From an uncultured virus (IMG/VR IMGVR_UViG_3300046507_000662) (taxonomy: Duplodnaviria; Heunggongvirae; Uroviricota; Caudoviricetes): DNA of 64,000 nt. The stretch is from IMG/VR virus record IMGVR_UViG_3300046507_000662; one strand, written 5' to 3'. This document shows, piece by piece, positions 1 to 33,590 of this stretch. Made by a program: the position numbers and the translations under genes. Each line of letters opens with the position of its first letter. Position 1 is the first letter of the stretch. A model generated the notes under the pieces. That model did no database searches, was not told the origin of the DNA, and saw nothing but the letters and a program-made list of their open reading frames with translations.

Positions 1-70
1 GTCCAGAGTGAATCACCTTGGACCGTCCCCCGGGTGGGGATGATCAAGCCTCCGTCACCGGGAGTGACCA

Positions 71-17509: not shown

Positions 17510-18715
17510 ATGACGACCTTCCCGGAACTGCTCCGTGAGTGGCGCCTGGCTGCCCACATGTCCCTTGCGGACCTGGCCCAGCGCGTCCGCTACGACCGCA
17601 CGTCGCTGCACAACTTCGAGACCGGCCGCCGGCCGACCCCGTTGTCTGTGGCGGAAGCCGCGGACGAAGCGACCGGCGCGAACGGCGCGCTAATAGAGGC
17701 GTGGAACCGGGAGGACCTACAGCGGCGGGAGGCTGCGGCGACGCACCGGGTGAGGGCTGCGGCCCTGGCCATGACGCGGGATCTGACCGCGCTGGCGGAC
17801 CTGGACATCGCGGAGCTGCAGGACGGTGTGGCCGTCACGGCGGTCGACTATCTGGCGTCTCCCCCGGGTCCGATGATGGACCGGGCGCACGTGCTGCGCG
17901 GTGAAGCGTTCGAGCGGATTCGGTCTGGGCATCACCGTCCGGCTGACCGGTCCGATCTGTACGTGGCCGCGGGCCGCCTGTCCGGGGTGCTGTCGTACGC
18001 GCTGCTGGATATGGGCGATGCGGACGAGGCGCTCGAGCACGCCACCGCGGCGGGCCGGTGTGCCGAGTTCGCCGGGGACGCCGAGCTGGCGGCGTGGGTG
18101 GCGGGTACGAGGTCGCTGATCGCGCGCTTCCAGGGCGACTACGGGCGCGCGCTGGAGTACATCCGGGACGGCTACCAGTGGGTTGGGGCCGGGCACGGCA
18201 CCGGCGAAGCGCGTCTGCGCTGCGGTGAGGCCCAGTGCCTCGCGAACCTCGGTGACAGCAGGGCCGCGAACCAGGCCCTGGACGGCGCCGAAGCCGCGCG
18301 GGAACGGATCCGCCGACCGGACTCTCTCGAGGGTCTGTTCGGGTTCTCGAGGGCGAAACAGTCCTACTACGCCGGGTCCAGCTTGATCTGGCTGCAGGGC
18401 GGACACGACGCAGAGCGCGCGGCGCGGGAAGCCCTCGAGGCGATCGCGCTGTGGCAGTCCGGTCCGGTGGAGGAGCGGTCGCTGGATGACGAGCGGCTCG
18501 CCCACATCTACCTCGCCACGGCCCGGGTGCAGCTCGACGACGTGGAGGGCGCGGCCGATGCCCTGGTGCCGGTCCTGTCGTTGCCAGTGGAAGAACAGAT
18601 TTCGTGGATCGTGAAGCGGATGGATCGGGTGGCGGGAATGCTCGGTGCTCCCCGGTACGCCGGTAATCAGACGGCTACCGAGACTGTCGAGCAGATCAAC
18701 GCCCTCGCGGCGTGA
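17510..18715 (+). CDS. XRE-family HTH regulator with helical-repeat (TPR-like) C-terminus
   Basis: LREWR...SLADLAQRVRYDRTSLHNFETGRR HTH; Ala-rich helical repeats; RBS GAGGAGG. Confidence 0.85.
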   Translation: MTTFPELLREWRLAAHMSLADLAQRVRYDRTSLHNFETGRRPTPLSVAEAADEATGANGALIEAWNREDLQRREAAATHRVRAAALAMTRDLTALADLDIAELQDGVAVTAVDYLASPPGPMMDRAHVLRGEAFERIRSGHHRPADRSDLYVAAGRLSGVLSYALLDMGDADEALEHATAAGRCAEFAGDAELAAWVAGTRSLIARFQGDYGRALEYIRDGYQWVGAGHGTGEARLRCGEAQCLANLGDSRAANQALDGAEAARERIRRPDSLEGLFGFSRAKQSYYAGSSLIWLQGGHDAERAAREALEAIALWQSGPVEERSLDDERLAHIYLATARVQLDDVEGAADALVPVLSLPVEEQISWIVKRMDRVAGMLGAPRYAGNQTATETVEQINALAA

Positions 18716-28073: not shown

Positions 28074-29002
28074 GTGGGAAGACCGAGGCCCGGGACCTGC
28101 TCCTGGACCTGATTGGCGCGGCCGACGCAGCGAACCGCGGAACCAGCCCCGAACAAGCCGTCGACGACGCCATCAGCGAAGCGATCCTGAACCAGCCATC
28201 CCTCCGAACCTGCCTGGTGCCCGGCTGCATGCGCCAGTACGACGCGGTCTCCACCATGACCGGTGAGACCCCGCCGCGGCCCGAATGGTCCGGGAAGGGC
28301 TGGTCCACACTCGGCTCCGGCAGCGTCTTTCCCGCCGGCGGCCACATCTGCCCCGACCACAAGCAGCTGGTCACCGACCACTTTCCCCGCCGTCTGAAGC
28401 TGCCCAGCGACCGTTGGAGCGTCGACTGCGCCTGCGGGTGGACGCCAGCCCCGCAGACCTGGCACGGCGTCCTGCGCGCCCTGTGGGAGCAGCACCTCCT
28501 CACCGTGGACGGCAAGCTGCCAGCCGCCCCGCCGATCACCGACCCCGAGCACCGGATCCCCCTCACCGAGCACACCGAGGCCACGCTCGCCGAGCTGTAC
28601 GACCGGCTGTGGGACGCCGAAGCCGACCACGAGGACCTCCGAGACTTCGCCCGGTCCTGCTTCCTCGCCTACACGACCGCCGTCCCCGCCCTCCTCGGCG
28701 CGAAGACCGCCCTCGAAGCCCTCCGTACCCGTATCACCCTCGACTCCCGCGACTGGACCGCCGACAAGGTCGACGCCCTCCTCTACGCGATCCTCGTCGG
28801 CGCGAACTGCGAAGACGACACCCCCGGCCACGTCCACAACGACATCGACTGCGCCGGCGACCAAGGCCTGTGGGACCTCGCAAAGCAGCACGACATCCCC
28901 ACCGACCAGACCATCCAGGCCAACCACCACCGCTGGTGGATCGCCAACGCCATCAAGGTCGCCAAGCAGATCGAAGACGCCAACAAGCCGAAGGAGGACT
29001 GA
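28070..29002 (+). CDS. Hypothetical protein
   Basis: GTGA coupling; codon bias. Confidence 0.7.
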   Translation: MSGKTEARDLLLDLIGAADAANRGTSPEQAVDDAISEAILNQPSLRTCLVPGCMRQYDAVSTMTGETPPRPEWSGKGWSTLGSGSVFPAGGHICPDHKQLVTDHFPRRLKLPSDRWSVDCACGWTPAPQTWHGVLRALWEQHLLTVDGKLPAAPPITDPEHRIPLTEHTEATLAELYDRLWDAEADHEDLRDFARSCFLAYTTAVPALLGAKTALEALRTRITLDSRDWTADKVDALLYAILVGANCEDDTPGHVHNDIDCAGDQGLWDLAKQHDIPTDQTIQANHHRWWIANAIKVAKQIEDANKPKED

Positions 29003-29004
29003 CC

Positions 29005-29367
29005 GTGCCTGAGCAGCCCTGCCCGTTCTGCGAGATCTCCGCAGGCCGTGCGCCCGCCACGTTCATCCGCGAGTGGGACGACGTCATCGCCATCGTGCCG
29101 CGCGGCCCTGTCGTCCCCGGCCACGTCCTCGTCATCCCGCGGGAGCACGTCACCGACTTCGCCGACGACCCGGTTGTGTCCGCCACCACCACCTACCGGG
29201 CATCCGAACTCGCAGCCGAGACCGATCAGCCCATGAACCTGATCACCTCGCGCGGCCGGGAAGCGACGCAGAGCGTGTTTCACCTTCACGTCCACCTCGT
29301 TCCTCGAGCGGAGAACGACGGCCTGGCCCTGCCTTGGTACAGCGGCCGCAGCAAGAAGGGGGCCTGA
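29005..29367 (+). CDS. HIT-family nucleotide hydrolase
   Basis: CPFC...GHVLVIP...QSVFHLHVHLVPR histidine triad. Confidence 0.9.
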   Translation: MPEQPCPFCEISAGRAPATFIREWDDVIAIVPRGPVVPGHVLVIPREHVTDFADDPVVSATTTYRASELAAETDQPMNLITSRGREATQSVFHLHVHLVPRAENDGLALPWYSGRSKKGA

Positions 29368-30715: not shown

Positions 30716-31831
30716 TCAGGCCGTCGGCTGGCCGGTCTTGGGTACGTCGGCCAATGGGGCGCTGTCATCGAAGTGGTAGTCGGGCGCCAAGGCGAACTTG
30801 CAGCCCAGCTGCGCCGGCGACACCGCACCGAACTTTGTCTTCAACACCGACACGTGATCCGTCAGGGTTCGAAGGCTGATGCCCAGCCGGGCCGCCGTCC
30901 TGCTCTGCTGGATTCCGTCGACCATGTCCCGCAGGATCACCCGCTCCAACGGTGTCGTCCGCAAGCCGGCACTCGGGCCTGACACGGTGTCGACGTCCGG
31001 GTGCCCGCCGCGCGTATCACCGTCCCACTCGACCGCGACTTCCGTCCTGGGTTCTCCCCGCCACAGCTGGGCGAGCTGCCAGGCGTTCATGAACGCGCCC
31101 ACGATGAAGCCGATCGCCGCAGGGTCTGTCACATGCCAGGCCGCGTGCGCGGGTGAGCCCTCCACCACGTAGTCCGACACGAACGCGTGCCGGCGGTCGA
31201 TGACGATGGCCCGCTCGTACGGGGCGACCAGCGTGCGGTACTCGGCCCCGTGACCGGTCATCATCCCGATATGGGAGGCCATGGCGGAGGACTGACGGAC
31301 GCTGTCCCGGTACAGGGTGCACAGGGACACCCCCCGGTTGAGGGCGGCCCGGTCGCGGTCCACTGACCGTTCCAGCTGTTCCTTGGTTCGGGGTCCGCCG
31401 GGCTGGGCGGCGAGGATTTCCGTGCGGGCGGAGTTGAGCAGGTCATCGAGTCGGGTGTTCACTACTGCGGCGTCGTCGATGTACTCGCTGCCGCCGCCGG
31501 CCAGGGAGCGGCCGCGGTCGAACTCCTTGGTCAGCTGTTCCGACATCAGGTGCAAGGTGCGCATTTTGGCGACCCGTTCGGCGGCCTCGGTGAGCAATGC
31601 CTCGAGGGTGCGCTGCTTTATGTCCTCGGGATTCAGGGCGACTGGTCTGTCCCCACCCCCGGAATCGATCTTCACAAACCCCAGGTCGGCCAACCGGGCA
31701 ACGGAATCCGCACACCCCTCCGGCACCCCTCCACCGTCCGCGATCAGGCCAAACACCTGAACATCATCAGCAGACAGGAATCCCTGATCACTCGATCCGA
31801 AATGCATGGCCAAAGCTTGATCCCCCGTCAA
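30716..31831 (-). CDS. TrmB/PLD-like sensor domain plus LuxR-type HTH transcriptional regulator
   Basis: N-terminal wHTH-like LADLGFV; central ARTEILAAQPGG...GVSLCTLY...AIVIDRRHAFV; C-terminal TAARLGISLRTLTDHVSVLKTKFG...QLG; start may be 31807. Confidence 0.8.
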   Translation of the reverse strand: MTGDQALAMHFGSSDQGFLSADDVQVFGLIADGGGVPEGCADSVARLADLGFVKIDSGGGDRPVALNPEDIKQRTLEALLTEAAERVAKMRTLHLMSEQLTKEFDRGRSLAGGGSEYIDDAAVVNTRLDDLLNSARTEILAAQPGGPRTKEQLERSVDRDRAALNRGVSLCTLYRDSVRQSSAMASHIGMMTGHGAEYRTLVAPYERAIVIDRRHAFVSDYVVEGSPAHAAWHVTDPAAIGFIVGAFMNAWQLAQLWRGEPRTEVAVEWDGDTRGGHPDVDTVSGPSAGLRTTPLERVILRDMVDGIQQSRTAARLGISLRTLTDHVSVLKTKFGAVSPAQLGCKFALAPDYHFDDSAPLADVPKTGQPTA

Positions 31832-32088
31832 AAATACGGCCCTGCACTGCGCTTACACGCAATGCGTAGATACGCAGCACACAAAGGTTGAGGATGAAAA
31901 GACTCTACGGCAGTTTAGTTGCGGGGCGTCCCCCGGCGCTCGTACTCCACGTCCTCCCCACGCACCACACGCGCCTACTGCCAGAAAGCGCGCCACACGC
32001 AACGGGATTCGCAGCGGACATGGAGCACGAGGAAACCGGGACGGCGCCCCGTTATCGTTCCCCGGACAACCCAAGAAGGGACCCGCCC

Positions 32089-32313
32089 GTGAGCAAGCGC
32101 ATCCGCTGCATCGTCGCCGGCCTCACCCTCGCCACCGCCGCAGCGACCGGCGCCGTCATCACCCACACCGTCGCCGCCCCCCGCATAGACACCACCTGGG
32201 GCGCCTCCGACACCGCGGACGACACCACGTGGGGCAGCGAGCCTGTCGACCTTCCCGTCACCCTTCCCGTCGACCTGCCGACCATCACGCCCCTCGACAC
32301 CACCTGGGGATAG
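32089..32313 (+). CDS. Secreted precursor peptide with three DTTWG repeats
   Basis: RBS AGAAGGGA, GTG; basic N-terminus plus hydrophobic signal; DTTWG x3, the last at the C-terminus. Confidence 0.8.
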   Translation: MSKRIRCIVAGLTLATAAATGAVITHTVAAPRIDTTWGASDTADDTTWGSEPVDLPVTLPVDLPTITPLDTTWG

Positions 32314-32506
32314 AGGCACGCGGATCCCTGCCTGAACCGGCCCGTCCGCCTGACGTGGCGTGGGAGACTCGCCGTGGCGCTGGTGCCGTGTACGTCCCCC
32401 GTGGCGGCACCAGCCGACACCTCCCGGCCGCAATCCGCATTGCCGCCCGGGGAACCCTGTGGCCCGCGTCTCTGGGGAGACCGGGCCACAGGCATGTCCG
32501 AGGGCG

Positions 32507-32529
32507 TTGTCAGTGCCGCATGCCATAGT
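32507..32529 (+). promoter_or_regulatory. RecA-NDp/PafBC-like promoter
   Basis: TTGTCAGTG-N8-CATAGT. Confidence 0.6.
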
Positions 32530-32557
32530 GGGCGGTCTGGTGCGCGACACACCGGCC

Positions 32558-32629
32558 TTGCTCCCCGCTGCTGCGGGGGTGTTCCAGTTCAGTACTTCGA
32601 GTTGTCCCCGCCGATGCGGGGTTAGCCCC
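32558..32629 (+). CRISPR. Degenerate type I-E-like mini-array (2 repeats, 14-nt spacer), no cas genes in window
   Basis: TTGCTCCCCGCTGCTGCGGGGGTGTTCCA and GTTGTCCCCGCCGATGCGGGGTTAGCCCC; both 29 nt with CCCCGC-N4-GCGGGG stem and 8-nt 3' tail. Confidence 0.6.
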
Positions 32630-32657
32630 GGCCCTTCTGGGTCGGGGCTCTTTGTTT
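32624..32657 (+). terminator. Intrinsic terminator
   Basis: AGCCCCGGCCC-TTCT-GGGTCGGGGCT followed by CTTTGTTT. Confidence 0.75.
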
Positions 32658-32666
32658 CCCCTCAAA

Positions 32667-32716
32667 ACGGTTGACGCATGCGTTAACCGTCTGTCATAGT
32701 TAACGCATGCGGAAAC
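32667..32716 (+). promoter_or_regulatory. Strong promoter with two palindromic operators
   Basis: TTGACG...CATAGT; ACGGTTGACGCATGCGTTAACCGT and GTTAACGCATGCGGAAAC. Confidence 0.7.
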
Positions 32717-32741: not shown

Positions 32742-33590
32742 ATGAACACCACCGCCGCAGCCACCCAGGCCAACGTCACCGTCGCCACCATCCGCACCTG
32801 GTGCCGCGTCGGAGCCGTCGCCGCCGTCAAGCAGGCCGGCCGCTGGATCATCGACATCGCCTCCCTCGCCGCCCGCATTGCCATCGGCCAGAGGAAGGCC
32901 CGCATGACCGACGAGCCGAAGTACCGCGTCGAAGAAGGAAGCACCATCCAGTACGGCAAAGCCCGCACCACGTACTCCATCGTCCGCACCGACGGAACCC
33001 CTGCCGGATACGGTCCCGGCAAGGACCTGCGCATCCACGGCGAGCCCTTCTTCACCGAGGACCTCGCCAAGTTCTACGCCAAGTTCTACGAGAACACCCC
33101 CGACGGCTTCCGCATCGAAAAGGCCCTGCCCCGCGCCGGCCGCATAGACCGCACCACCTACTGGGTCGTCACCGGATCCACCAAAGGCGACCCGAGCGAC
33201 CTGCGGATGCGGATCGAAGCCGACTGGACCGCCGAAGGCAAGAACACCCCCGCCGGCACCACCGTCGTGGACATCCTCATCCAGTGGGCGAATCAGCATG
33301 CCGCGGGCGCCGAACAGCGCATCGCGGAGAAGGCGGAGAAGGACGCCATCGCCGCCGCCGAAGCGACCGTCCGCGAGGCCCGCGAAGAGCAGCTCGCCGA
33401 GGCCCGCCGCACCAAGGGCGAGCTGGCCACCGCCCGACAGGTCGACTACATCCTCCAGCTCCTGACCGTGCGGGCCCGCACCGGCGAGGGCGGCGGATTC
33501 TTCCAGGGCCCCACCGACCGCGCTGGAATCGAAGAACTGTCCAAGGCCGAGGCTTCCACCTACATCACCTCACTGAAGGGCGACTACTGA
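32742..33590 (+). CDS. Protein with N-terminal MerR/HTH_17-like domain and unknown C-terminal domains
   Basis: AAATQANVTVATIRTWCRVGAVAAVKQAGRWII; RBS GGAGG. Confidence 0.8.
   Translation: MNTTAAATQANVTVATIRTWCRVGAVAAVKQAGRWIIDIASLAARIAIGQRKARMTDEPKYRVEEGSTIQYGKARTTYSIVRTDGTPAGYGPGKDLRIHGEPFFTEDLAKFYAKFYENTPDGFRIEKALPRAGRIDRTTYWVVTGSTKGDPSDLRMRIEADWTAEGKNTPAGTTVVDILIQWANQHAAGAEQRIAEKAEKDAIAAAEATVREAREEQLAEARRTKGELATARQVDYILQLLTVRARTGEGGGFFQGPTDRAGIEELSKAEASTYITSLKGDY

Follow-up and report, generated by a model that had tools for sequence, protein, structure and literature searches.

A TrmB-like/LuxR regulator and a divergent DTTWG-repeat precursor form a candidate peptide-signalling cassette in Streptomyces phage-plasmids

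The DNA analysed here, called the window, is a stretch of 64,000 nucleotides from an uncultured virus of the Caudoviricetes (IMG/VR record IMGVR_UViG_3300046507_000662). It contains a cassette of two head-to-head genes, one for a regulator that joins a TrmB-like part to a C-terminal LuxR-type helix-turn-helix (HTH), the other for a 74-residue precursor with a signal-peptide-like start and three DTTWG units. Both genes are present, in divergent orientation, in all 21 distinct phage-plasmid-type loci compared (the window, L002-L006, L008-L012, L015, L017, L030, L035, L040, L042, L063, L078, L080 and L081; repeats of the same contig removed). RRNPP systems, including arbitrium (AimR-AimP-AimX) of Bacillus phages, Rap-Phr, PlcR-PapR and PrgX, combine an intracellular HTH receptor with a secreted propeptide. 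Judged from sequence comparison, the cassette may be a propeptide-receptor signalling module that works like RRNPP and arbitrium systems, a reading to which we assign a probability of about 0.45. It is placed outside both groups, because a tetratricopeptide-repeat (TPR) receptor and an aimX-type output were looked for and neither was found. New in this analysis are an operator-like tandem repeat and a structured 5' leader within the cassette, together with leaderless mini-genes (MSDTAWG-stop) in prophages lacking the regulator.

The core of this arrangement had been proposed in a preliminary description of the window, and it is upheld by the comparisons. The precursor is a secreted-type open reading frame (ORF), with a start that looks signal-like by eye and the third DTTWG unit at the stop codon. 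The TrmB/PLD-like domain and LuxR HTH of the head-to-head regulator are recovered by profile search (TrmBL2, NarL) and by Foldseek. The expectation of a receptor other than RRNPP/TPR agrees with the absence of TPR from the Pfam matches and with profile and fold matches to TrmBL2, TrmB and PLD. Likewise, a Pfam scan of nine neighbouring ORFs in the window found no modifying enzyme of the kind that acts on ribosomally synthesized and post-translationally modified peptides (RiPPs). The features are listed in Table 1.

Table 1 Features of the cassette, its flanks and the window (nucleotide positions of the window unless given as residues)
Feature	Position	Strand	Basis
Regulator gene, 371 aa from TTG 31831, divergent from precursor	30716-31831	-	ORF list
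Regulator, winged helix (degenerate)	residues about 20-64		AlphaFold model
Regulator, long helix	residues 67-109		AlphaFold model
Regulator, PLD-like alpha/beta domain	residues 114-252		AlphaFold model
Regulator, low-confidence linker	residues 253-292		AlphaFold model
Regulator, four-helix LuxR/GerE-type HTH	residues 293-352		AlphaFold model
Two adjacent operator-like inverted repeats, TGCGT-N4-ACGCA	31848-31861 and 31863-31876	.	Pattern scan and conservation
Invariant promoter-like block, GTTGA ... CTACGGCA	31886-31913	+	Invariant or near-invariant columns, 20-locus alignment
Conserved 5' leader of precursor mRNA, about 130 nt, candidate structure	31923-32050	+	RNAalifold, covariation
Precursor gene, 74 aa, GTG start	32089-32313	+	ORF list, GC3, relatives
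DTTWG unit 1	32188-32202	+	In precursor
DTTWG unit 2	32221-32235	+	In precursor
DTTWG unit 3, TAG stop directly after	32296-32310	+	In precursor
Intrinsic-terminator-like hairpin and T tract	32624-32659	+	About 310 nt after precursor stop
Two 18-bp palindromes (GTTGACGCATGCGTTAAC type)	32670-32687 and 32699-32716	.	Sole window matches, 0 expected
FtsK/SpoIIIE-like protein, weak match	6896-9187		Gene-content scan of window
ParA	51916-53070		Gene-content scan of window
ERF recombinase	61148-62350		Gene-content scan of window

The DTTWG precursor

The precursor is composed of a signal-peptide-like segment (residues 1 to about 30), in which a basic KRIR is followed by about 18 hydrophobic or small residues, and a 44-residue region harboring the DTTWG units. 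Relatives keep the basic n-region and the hydrophobic stretch, many of them with an R-R pair, and the homologue on plasmid pSAM1 is labelled 'exported protein of unknown function' in its public record. A longer reading of 141 residues (31888-32313; also called as the 139-residue protein P0010) was ruled out. Its additional part, 31888-32088, is considered non-coding, because G+C content at third codon positions (GC3) is 0.70 there, against 0.92 in the precursor ORF, and because frame-breaking 1-nt indels separate the relatives.

A profile search of 5.8 billion proteins (8000 candidates scored, the best 120 listed) detects 251 precursor relatives at E<=1, and among the matches listed, many of the relatives that have long contigs are carried by contigs of 85-101 kb. 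The C-terminal end is DT[TAG]WG in 117 of 122 precursor sequences and DTTW in the other five, and the same set contains 86 precursors with three xxxWG units, 31 with two and three with four. The linkers vary freely in length and sequence, G-[AT]-P comes after most internal units, and T-P-L precedes the last unit in 66/122. Invariant columns are confined to the C-terminal D, T and W in an alignment of 115 sequences, and include G as well in one of 17. Moreover, the copies within one precursor are homogeneous in 106/122 sequences (shuffle mean 31.6, maximum 46). The preliminary description had read peptide-level selection from varied synonymous codons in the repeats. This codon argument is thin, since the three 15-nt units carry one third-codon difference each (ACC/ACG, GGC/GGA); selection at the peptide level is nevertheless evident from comparison with relatives, in which variable linkers contrast with the invariant C-terminal D, T and W.

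The regulator

Translation of the regulator likely starts at the ATG at 31805-31807, matching the start of its database representative P0123. Single-sequence Pfam matches stay below cut-off, with GerE at 20.4 bits (residues 293-342) and Regulator_TrmB at 15.7 bits (residues 118-258; cut-off 22.2). A profile of 69 regulator sequences searched against the PDB matches TrmBL2 (5bpd; E 3.4e-10) over profile positions 29-247 and NarL/GerE (E 2.1e-10) over positions 253-317. The AlphaFold model has a predicted local distance difference test score (pLDDT) of 87.7 and a predicted template modelling score (pTM) of 0.70, and Foldseek aligns it with TrmBL2 (5bpi; E 4.2e-10), TrmB (3qph, 2f5t) and the PLD nuclease Nuc (1byr). 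TrmBL2 (258-263 residues), rather than full-length TrmB, gives the best matches.

TrmB is an archaeal sugar-sensing regulator. Like TrmB and TrmBL2, the regulator contains, within its N-terminal 250 residues, a winged helix, a long dimerisation helix and a PLD-like domain, matched by both profile and fold. It differs from them in being bacterial, in a winged helix that looks shortened in the model, and in the fusion to a C-terminal LuxR/GerE HTH: after residue 252 the model continues with the linker and the LuxR HTH, and the C-terminal sugar-binding subdomain of TrmB is absent. The GerE/NarL-type HTH is shared with LuxR solos and with LuxR receptors of the acyl-homoserine lactone (AHL) type, and the sensor part has a fold different from that of AHL-type receptors. 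No TPR domain was found in the regulator by Pfam, and no autoinducer-binding domain is present among its Pfam hits at E<=0.1. Public records annotate the gene as 'LuxR C-terminal-related transcriptional regulator'.

The family is large: a library clustered at 50% identity contains 1122 clusters matching at E<=1e-3, of which 465 remain at the tighter threshold of E<=1e-10. Of 41 sampled Streptomyces genomes, 40 yield a match at E<=1e-40, and single genomes contain several matches (13 in one, 8 in another). Tandem clusters of three or four adjoining paralogues are common in Streptomyces chromosomes (G002:C10:291621-294578; similarly in G009, G021, G023, G027, G030 and G046).

Pairing of regulator and precursor

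The pairing is recovered from either gene. When viral and genome collections were searched with a single regulator protein, two close loci were found in each (three distinct contigs), with the same pairing. Among the plasmid loci derived from tblastn, 9/12 contain an annotated small divergent ORF with two or three DT[TAG]WG units, the last of them at the protein end. The peptide-first search used a DNA pattern for the C-terminal unit over viral contigs and returned 68 loci. The regulator (E<=1e-94) lies beside all 11 signal-peptide precursors among them, compared with 0/57 of the other pattern hits. Chance in-frame matches in unrelated frames account for 32 of the 68, and in 29 of these 32 no stop codon follows.

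In three linear plasmids of 93-223 kb (L013, L014 and L016), an unannotated frame ending in RRDSAWGC-stop is doubtful as a precursor, having no signal peptide and a GC3 of 0.72-0.79. These frames lie on the minus strand in intergenic sequence near the regulator (L013 2110-2406, L014 2082-2534, L016 2107-2406) and may represent a degenerate or leaderless DSAWG precursor.

Farther out in the family the pairing persists with other cores. Four of six distant plasmid homologues of the regulator (about 30-36% identity) have a divergent annotated ORF of 65-73 residues with a signal-like start and a different repeated core, again with a copy at the protein end: DSAWG x2 (two loci), DIQW(G) x4 and DSDWG x2. 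The remaining two, which neighbour a transposase in one case and lie among sugar genes in the other, show no precursor. A detector requiring a signal-like N-terminus plus either at least two like xxxW units or a C-terminal [DEN]xxW is positive in 20/36 genome loci, which partly overlap (L021/L023; tandem paralogue clusters), in 4/9 other plasmid loci and in 7/20 phage-plasmid loci. The last score is low because the hydrophobicity threshold misses Ala/Thr-rich signal peptides; a direct motif scan is positive in 20/20. The control sequence, 391 kb made up of the remainder of the window, regulator-free viral loci and 49 kb of pSAM1, yielded four hits, none of them acidic-x-x-W. A stricter version is positive in 10/36 genome loci, versus none in 342 kb of controls and none in reversed sequence. 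Chromosomal cores include DSTW (up to nine copies, L132), DSVW, DTVW, DTSW, DSKW, DLAW, NTSW, DIAW and DPGW, and further DSGW, DVGW, DPHW and EPSW; some are not at the C-terminus. The preliminary description suggested asking whether regulator homologues keep adjacent signal-peptide ORFs with DxxW repeats, and they do so in 21/21 phage-plasmid-type, 4/9 other plasmid and 20/36 genome loci.

A conserved protein of about 112 residues lies directly 3' of the chromosomal precursors of the 'MRTKPTM...' type (L020 2765-3103, plus strand; L021 820-1260 and L128 757-1038, minus strand). It has no Pfam match and may process the precursor or act as a partner. In G002, the precursor that corresponds to the one in L020 (locus L021) has a different ending and was left out of the count.

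Intergenic region and flanks

The GTG of the precursor is separated from the regulator ATG by 281 bp, and this intergenic region is conserved across 20 loci, beyond the conservation of the proteins. The two operator-like repeats are located 41-69 bp upstream of the regulator ATG, just upstream of the GTTGA...CTACGGCA block. With up to one mismatch, TGCGT-N4-ACGCA has two matches in the 64-kb window, both in the cassette; 2.87 are expected, so that the count is not above chance and the case for the repeats rests on position and conservation. The site is found at the same place in 15/21 loci, and a looser GCG...CGCA form in 20/20 aligned loci. We infer that the tandem sites are candidate binding sites of the cassette's regulator, and at this position they could serve both to repress the regulator gene itself and to activate the precursor promoter. 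The GTTGA...CTACGGCA block is assigned as a putative promoter; a simple sigma-70 scan gives no site in it.

The 5' leader that follows is probably structured. Particularly, a long-range helix pairs GGGGCGUC (31923-31930) with GGCGCCCC (32043-32050) and encloses inner helices; across loci the partner of GGGGCGUC reads GRCGCCCC, with U-A/U-G/C-G covariation. RNAalifold on 16 loci predicts 22 leader pairs, three of them with compensatory changes. The structure is paired in 96% of cells, against 37-58% when slid, and double-change cells number 8, against 3.1 in shuffles (0/500 shuffles as high). G-U pairs assign it to the plus strand. No Rfam family matches the leader; the two Rfam hits obtained are sub-threshold and lie over the terminator hairpin. 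The leader motifs are limited to the phage-plasmid clade, and the leader might act in cis as a regulatory element or itself be an RNA output.

On the 3' side, more hairpins occur at 32379-32621, between the precursor stop and the terminator-like hairpin. The 450 nt 3' of the precursor are not conserved, even between loci with regulators 70-79% identical, which leaves the regulator, the intergenic region and the precursor as the conserved unit. Comparison of the loci indicates that the cassette moves as this unit, with the intergenic region kept in 20 loci and the downstream flank not. The two GTTGACGCATGCGTTAAC-type palindromes flank a promoter-like site (32671-32700) of an HTH_17 gene (32742-33590); their ACGCA/TGCGT half-sites are those of the operator-like repeats, arranged the other way round. 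Both are present in L008, a partial match to one in L078, and none in the other 18 loci, and they are a neighbouring feature rather than a conserved part of the cassette. No link from the cassette to lysis, replication or transfer genes was found in the 64-kb window. The suggestion in the preliminary description that the cassette controls a lysis/plasmid or transfer decision thus finds no support, the operator-like sites in the window lying only inside the cassette and the flanks not being conserved.

Leaderless mini-genes in prophages

Among the 68 pattern hits, 25 (24 distinct sites) are tiny ORFs of 7-15 codons without a signal peptide (L033, L034, L037-L039, L041, L043, L046, L050, L053-L056, L066 and L067; L071-L073, L077, L079, L088, L089, L091 and L097; motif at about 2501 of the oriented locus). 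Their products read M/V-S-D-T-[TA]-W-G-stop, MSDDTAWG-stop or, with two units, forms such as MSDDTTWG-[MN]-SDTAWG-stop. The starts have a GGAGG-type ribosome-binding site or a GTGA overlap with the stop of the upstream gene, and a strong GC hairpin follows each stop within about 15-20 nt. The carriers are high-GC, Streptomyces-like viral contigs of 11-87 kb, some classed as proviruses. A frequent neighbour of the mini-genes is a convergent integrase or serine-recombinase gene, its 3' end about 60 nt away, or a gene with a LexA DNA-binding domain in divergent orientation.

No modifying enzyme was found in the neighbourhood of the mini-genes. Five whole records were checked, and their only matches are small proteins resembling the HTH part of the regulator (LuxR-HTH). 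The DUF2637 marker of the window is absent from the four records tested, and the mini-ORF region has no match in the phage and plasmid collections. Genes of this size recall the smallest known peptide genes, such as those for microcin C or biarylitides. The same peptide thus occurs in three unrelated genetic contexts with synonymous differences, which argues strongly that the peptide itself has a function; as far as these contexts indicate, neither export nor the TrmB-LuxR regulator is always needed for it. In one 69.9-kb viral contig the same mini-gene region is present at both ends (L034 and L048, taken as one site in the count), which points to either a terminal repeat or a circular genome opened inside this region.

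Evidence for and against a signalling function

If the cassette signals in the manner of RRNPP systems, the precursor would be exported and its signal peptide removed, and extracellular proteases would cut the variable linkers and release DTTWG pentapeptides, which would accumulate with the density of element-carrying cells. The peptide would re-enter through the host oligopeptide permease and bind the PLD-like domain of the regulator. Through its LuxR HTH the regulator would bind the tandem TGCGT-N4-ACGCA sites, and would in this way regulate both its own transcription and the divergent promoter that drives the precursor with the structured leader. The C-terminal core, invariant among the precursors, would agree with such release, uptake and binding.

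In favour of this reading are the pairing of both genes in all phage-plasmid-type loci, the selection at the peptide level and the movement of the cassette as a unit. Two comparative observations also bear on it. The core differs between regulator clades across the sequences compared, and the conservation of the regulator domains changes with the core. In the DTTW phage-plasmids, with a constant core, conservation within the regulator peaks in the PLD-like domain (for example, PLD 0.76-0.83 versus HTH 0.54-0.74). In chromosomal orthologues with differing cores, the HTH is nearly invariant (0.94-0.98) and the PLD-like domain is at 0.73-0.81. For independent nearest pairs, chosen greedily, the mean PLD-minus-HTH identity is +0.03 in 12 same-core pairs versus -0.17 in five different-core pairs (U=60, exact p=1.6e-4). 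The comparison excludes one same-core pair for which no HTH identity was computable, and leaves unpaired those sequences that lack a partner at >=45% identity. This pattern is what a sensor-ligand relation would predict, and the comparative evidence as a whole is mixed. Complex prediction with the regulator and precursor residues 31-74 gives a score of 0.01 (mark 0.32), which is not evidence either way.

Several observations weigh against signalling. The domain-identity contrast is confounded by clade, as all five different-core pairs are chromosomal and most same-core pairs are from phage-plasmids. Within the phage-plasmids the core is nearly invariant; T-type cores go with 12 regulators that form a supported clade and A/G types with the remaining nine, so that the 21 pairs appear to contain a single T-to-A switch, explicable by linkage alone. 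A 'pherotype' test within this clade was accordingly rejected as independent evidence, the single T/A switch on the regulator tree reflecting descent, and the homogeneity of copies within a precursor is likewise not independent evidence. On the structural side, the regulator lacks the C-terminal sugar-binding subdomain of TrmB, and TrmBL2, its nearest solved relative, is a chromatin protein by PDB title. No operator-like site occurs elsewhere in the 64-kb window. No precursor was detected in 16/36 genome loci and 5/9 other plasmid loci, which implies that members of the regulator family can work without one. Moreover, no TrmB-LuxR regulator lies within 2.5 kb of any of the 24 mini-gene sites, and since leaderless mini-genes occur without it, the peptide probably has some other target. 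The near-invariant core and these regulator-free mini-genes are the two findings that speak against a private, arbitrium-like phage channel.

Alternative explanations

The alternative that survives best, though we consider it somewhat unlikely, is that the precursor is a regulated secreted effector. The regulator would then only switch the divergent precursor gene, in response to another cue, and the released DxxW peptide would act on a conserved host or competitor target, which might be an enzyme, a receptor on the surface or a further regulator. In bacteria it is common for a regulator gene to be divergent from its target gene. A conserved external target fits a core that is nearly invariant across phage-plasmids although their regulators share only 37-50% identity, and the leaderless mini-genes give the same peptide in unrelated prophages without the regulator, by integrase or LexA-type repressor genes. 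In addition, with operator-like sites in the window only inside the cassette, the peptide gene looks like the output. However, cores diversify with regulator clades across the wider family, no candidate target is known, and a regulator-target pair does not predict a PLD-like domain that is best conserved at a constant core and most diverged at differing cores. The near-invariant phage-plasmid core and the mini-genes thus favour the effector, whereas core diversification and the domain pattern favour propeptide-receptor signalling.

A multi-core RiPP-type precursor appears improbable. Enzymes encoded elsewhere would cut out its Trp-containing cores and modify them, for instance at Trp, with the regulator serving the pathway. 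Multi-core RiPP precursors have repeated short cores between variable linkers, and the precursor resembles them in this respect, with up to nine copies in chromosomal relatives; the conserved 112-residue protein of no known family after the precursor in L020, L021 and L128 would also suit such a pathway. Unlike at RiPP loci, however, no modifying enzyme is found among the nine window neighbours of the precursor or beside the mini-genes, and the flanks of the cassette vary between relatives; the 112-residue protein itself has no Pfam match and is absent from the phage-plasmid loci.

Most improbable of all is that the C-terminal DTxWG-stop acts in cis (as a nascent-chain or leader-peptide element, for example by a termination pause with an effect on RNA downstream) or that the gene encodes a small structural protein anchored at the surface. 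In favour, the motif directly precedes the stop codon in 117/122 sequences, strong hairpins lie within about 15-20 nt of the mini-ORFs, and the precursor gene is preceded by a structured leader and followed by a region rich in hairpins. Against this, the internal copies are conserved, needlessly for a stop-codon element, five sequences end in DTTW without G, some chromosomal cores are not C-terminal, the 3' region of the precursor is not conserved and the genes downstream of the mini-ORFs are convergent.

Comparison with known systems and wider meaning

The RRNPP features compared here are taken in part from portions of PMC10075063. Like RRNPP and arbitrium systems, the cassette places an HTH regulator beside a small gene for a propeptide with an export signal (judged by eye). 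As in RRNPP systems, the conserved unit is at the extreme C-terminus of the precursor, the cores differ between clades of the candidate receptor, and the carriers are phages, plasmids and chromosomes. Unlike RRNPP systems, it has no TPR receptor and carries instead a TrmB-like winged-helix/coiled-coil/PLD-like module with a LuxR-type HTH; the host phylum is Actinomycetota, and the precursor contains 2-9 core copies. Unlike arbitrium, it has no conserved AimX-like element downstream of the precursor, and its core is nearly invariant among phage-plasmids, which departs from the private channels of arbitrium.

A full-text literature search for the DTTWG motif returned only an unrelated allergen paper. 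In searches on Streptomyces peptide communication, arbitrium, TrmB/LuxR, pheromones or propeptides, and phage-plasmids or pZL12, the titles and abstracts listed contain nothing on the cassette. According to a part of PMC10075063, Actinomycetota typically signal with small molecules and Bacillota with gene-encoded peptides. A broader proposal, doubtful at present, is that Streptomyces and its mobile elements use an unnoticed family of peptide signals, in which acidic-x-x-Trp cores from multi-core secreted precursors would be read by a new class of cytoplasmic TrmB-like/PLD-like-LuxR receptors. Phage-plasmids of the pZL12/pSAM1 type would own the DTTWG/DTAWG channel, and the MSDTAWG mini-genes of other temperate phages would speak on it or jam it, from inside the cell or on lysis. 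If true, a cassette of peptide and receptor in which the receptor fold has no relation to RRNPP would alter the small-molecule picture of signalling in Actinomycetota, and the pentapeptide would provide a simple synthesisable handle on gene expression in antibiotic producers and on phage-plasmid behaviour. The regulator family occurs in 40/41 sampled Streptomyces genomes, with a precursor at about half of the examined loci. Even if the regulator is not the receptor, the secreted DxxW multi-core family and the 7-codon prophage mini-genes are without a published explanation that we found.

Genomic setting of the cassette

The genes of the window are those of a Streptomyces phage-plasmid, and its GC content is 66-71%. 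In addition to the ParA, ERF recombinase and FtsK/SpoIIIE-like genes of Table 1, it encodes a WhiB-like protein, a DNA methylase and a DUF2637 protein, and several of its proteins match PHROG families of unknown function. The nearest record is the viral contig G001 (65.6 kb), which is 100% identical to the window over 30716-32400. By megablast, the window has no match among cultured phages and only short patches among plasmids. Plasmid pSLE1, of the same size class (86-94 kb), matches a short patch of the window's flank only; in a part of PMC4487206, pSLE1 is said to show high synteny with the plasmid-phage pZL12. Regulator homologues are found on many Streptomyces plasmids in this 86-94 kb range, with the type 'non-mobilizable', among them pSAM1 of S. 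ambofaciens, whose record is annotated with ParA/ParB, phage Bet, integrase, amidase and tail genes. S. ambofaciens ATCC 23877 is an example of a cultured strain with the cassette, which on its pSAM1 is locus L015.

Elsewhere in the window, a 401-residue NsdA-family regulator (17510-18715, plus strand) combines an XRE-type HTH with TPR-like repeats (NCBIfam E 4e-27), as RRNPP receptors typically do; no small secreted ORF was noticed next to this gene. The end part of the frame 28285-29367 (about 29000-29367, plus strand) resembles a HIT (histidine-triad, HxHxH) protein in a by-eye reading of its translation.

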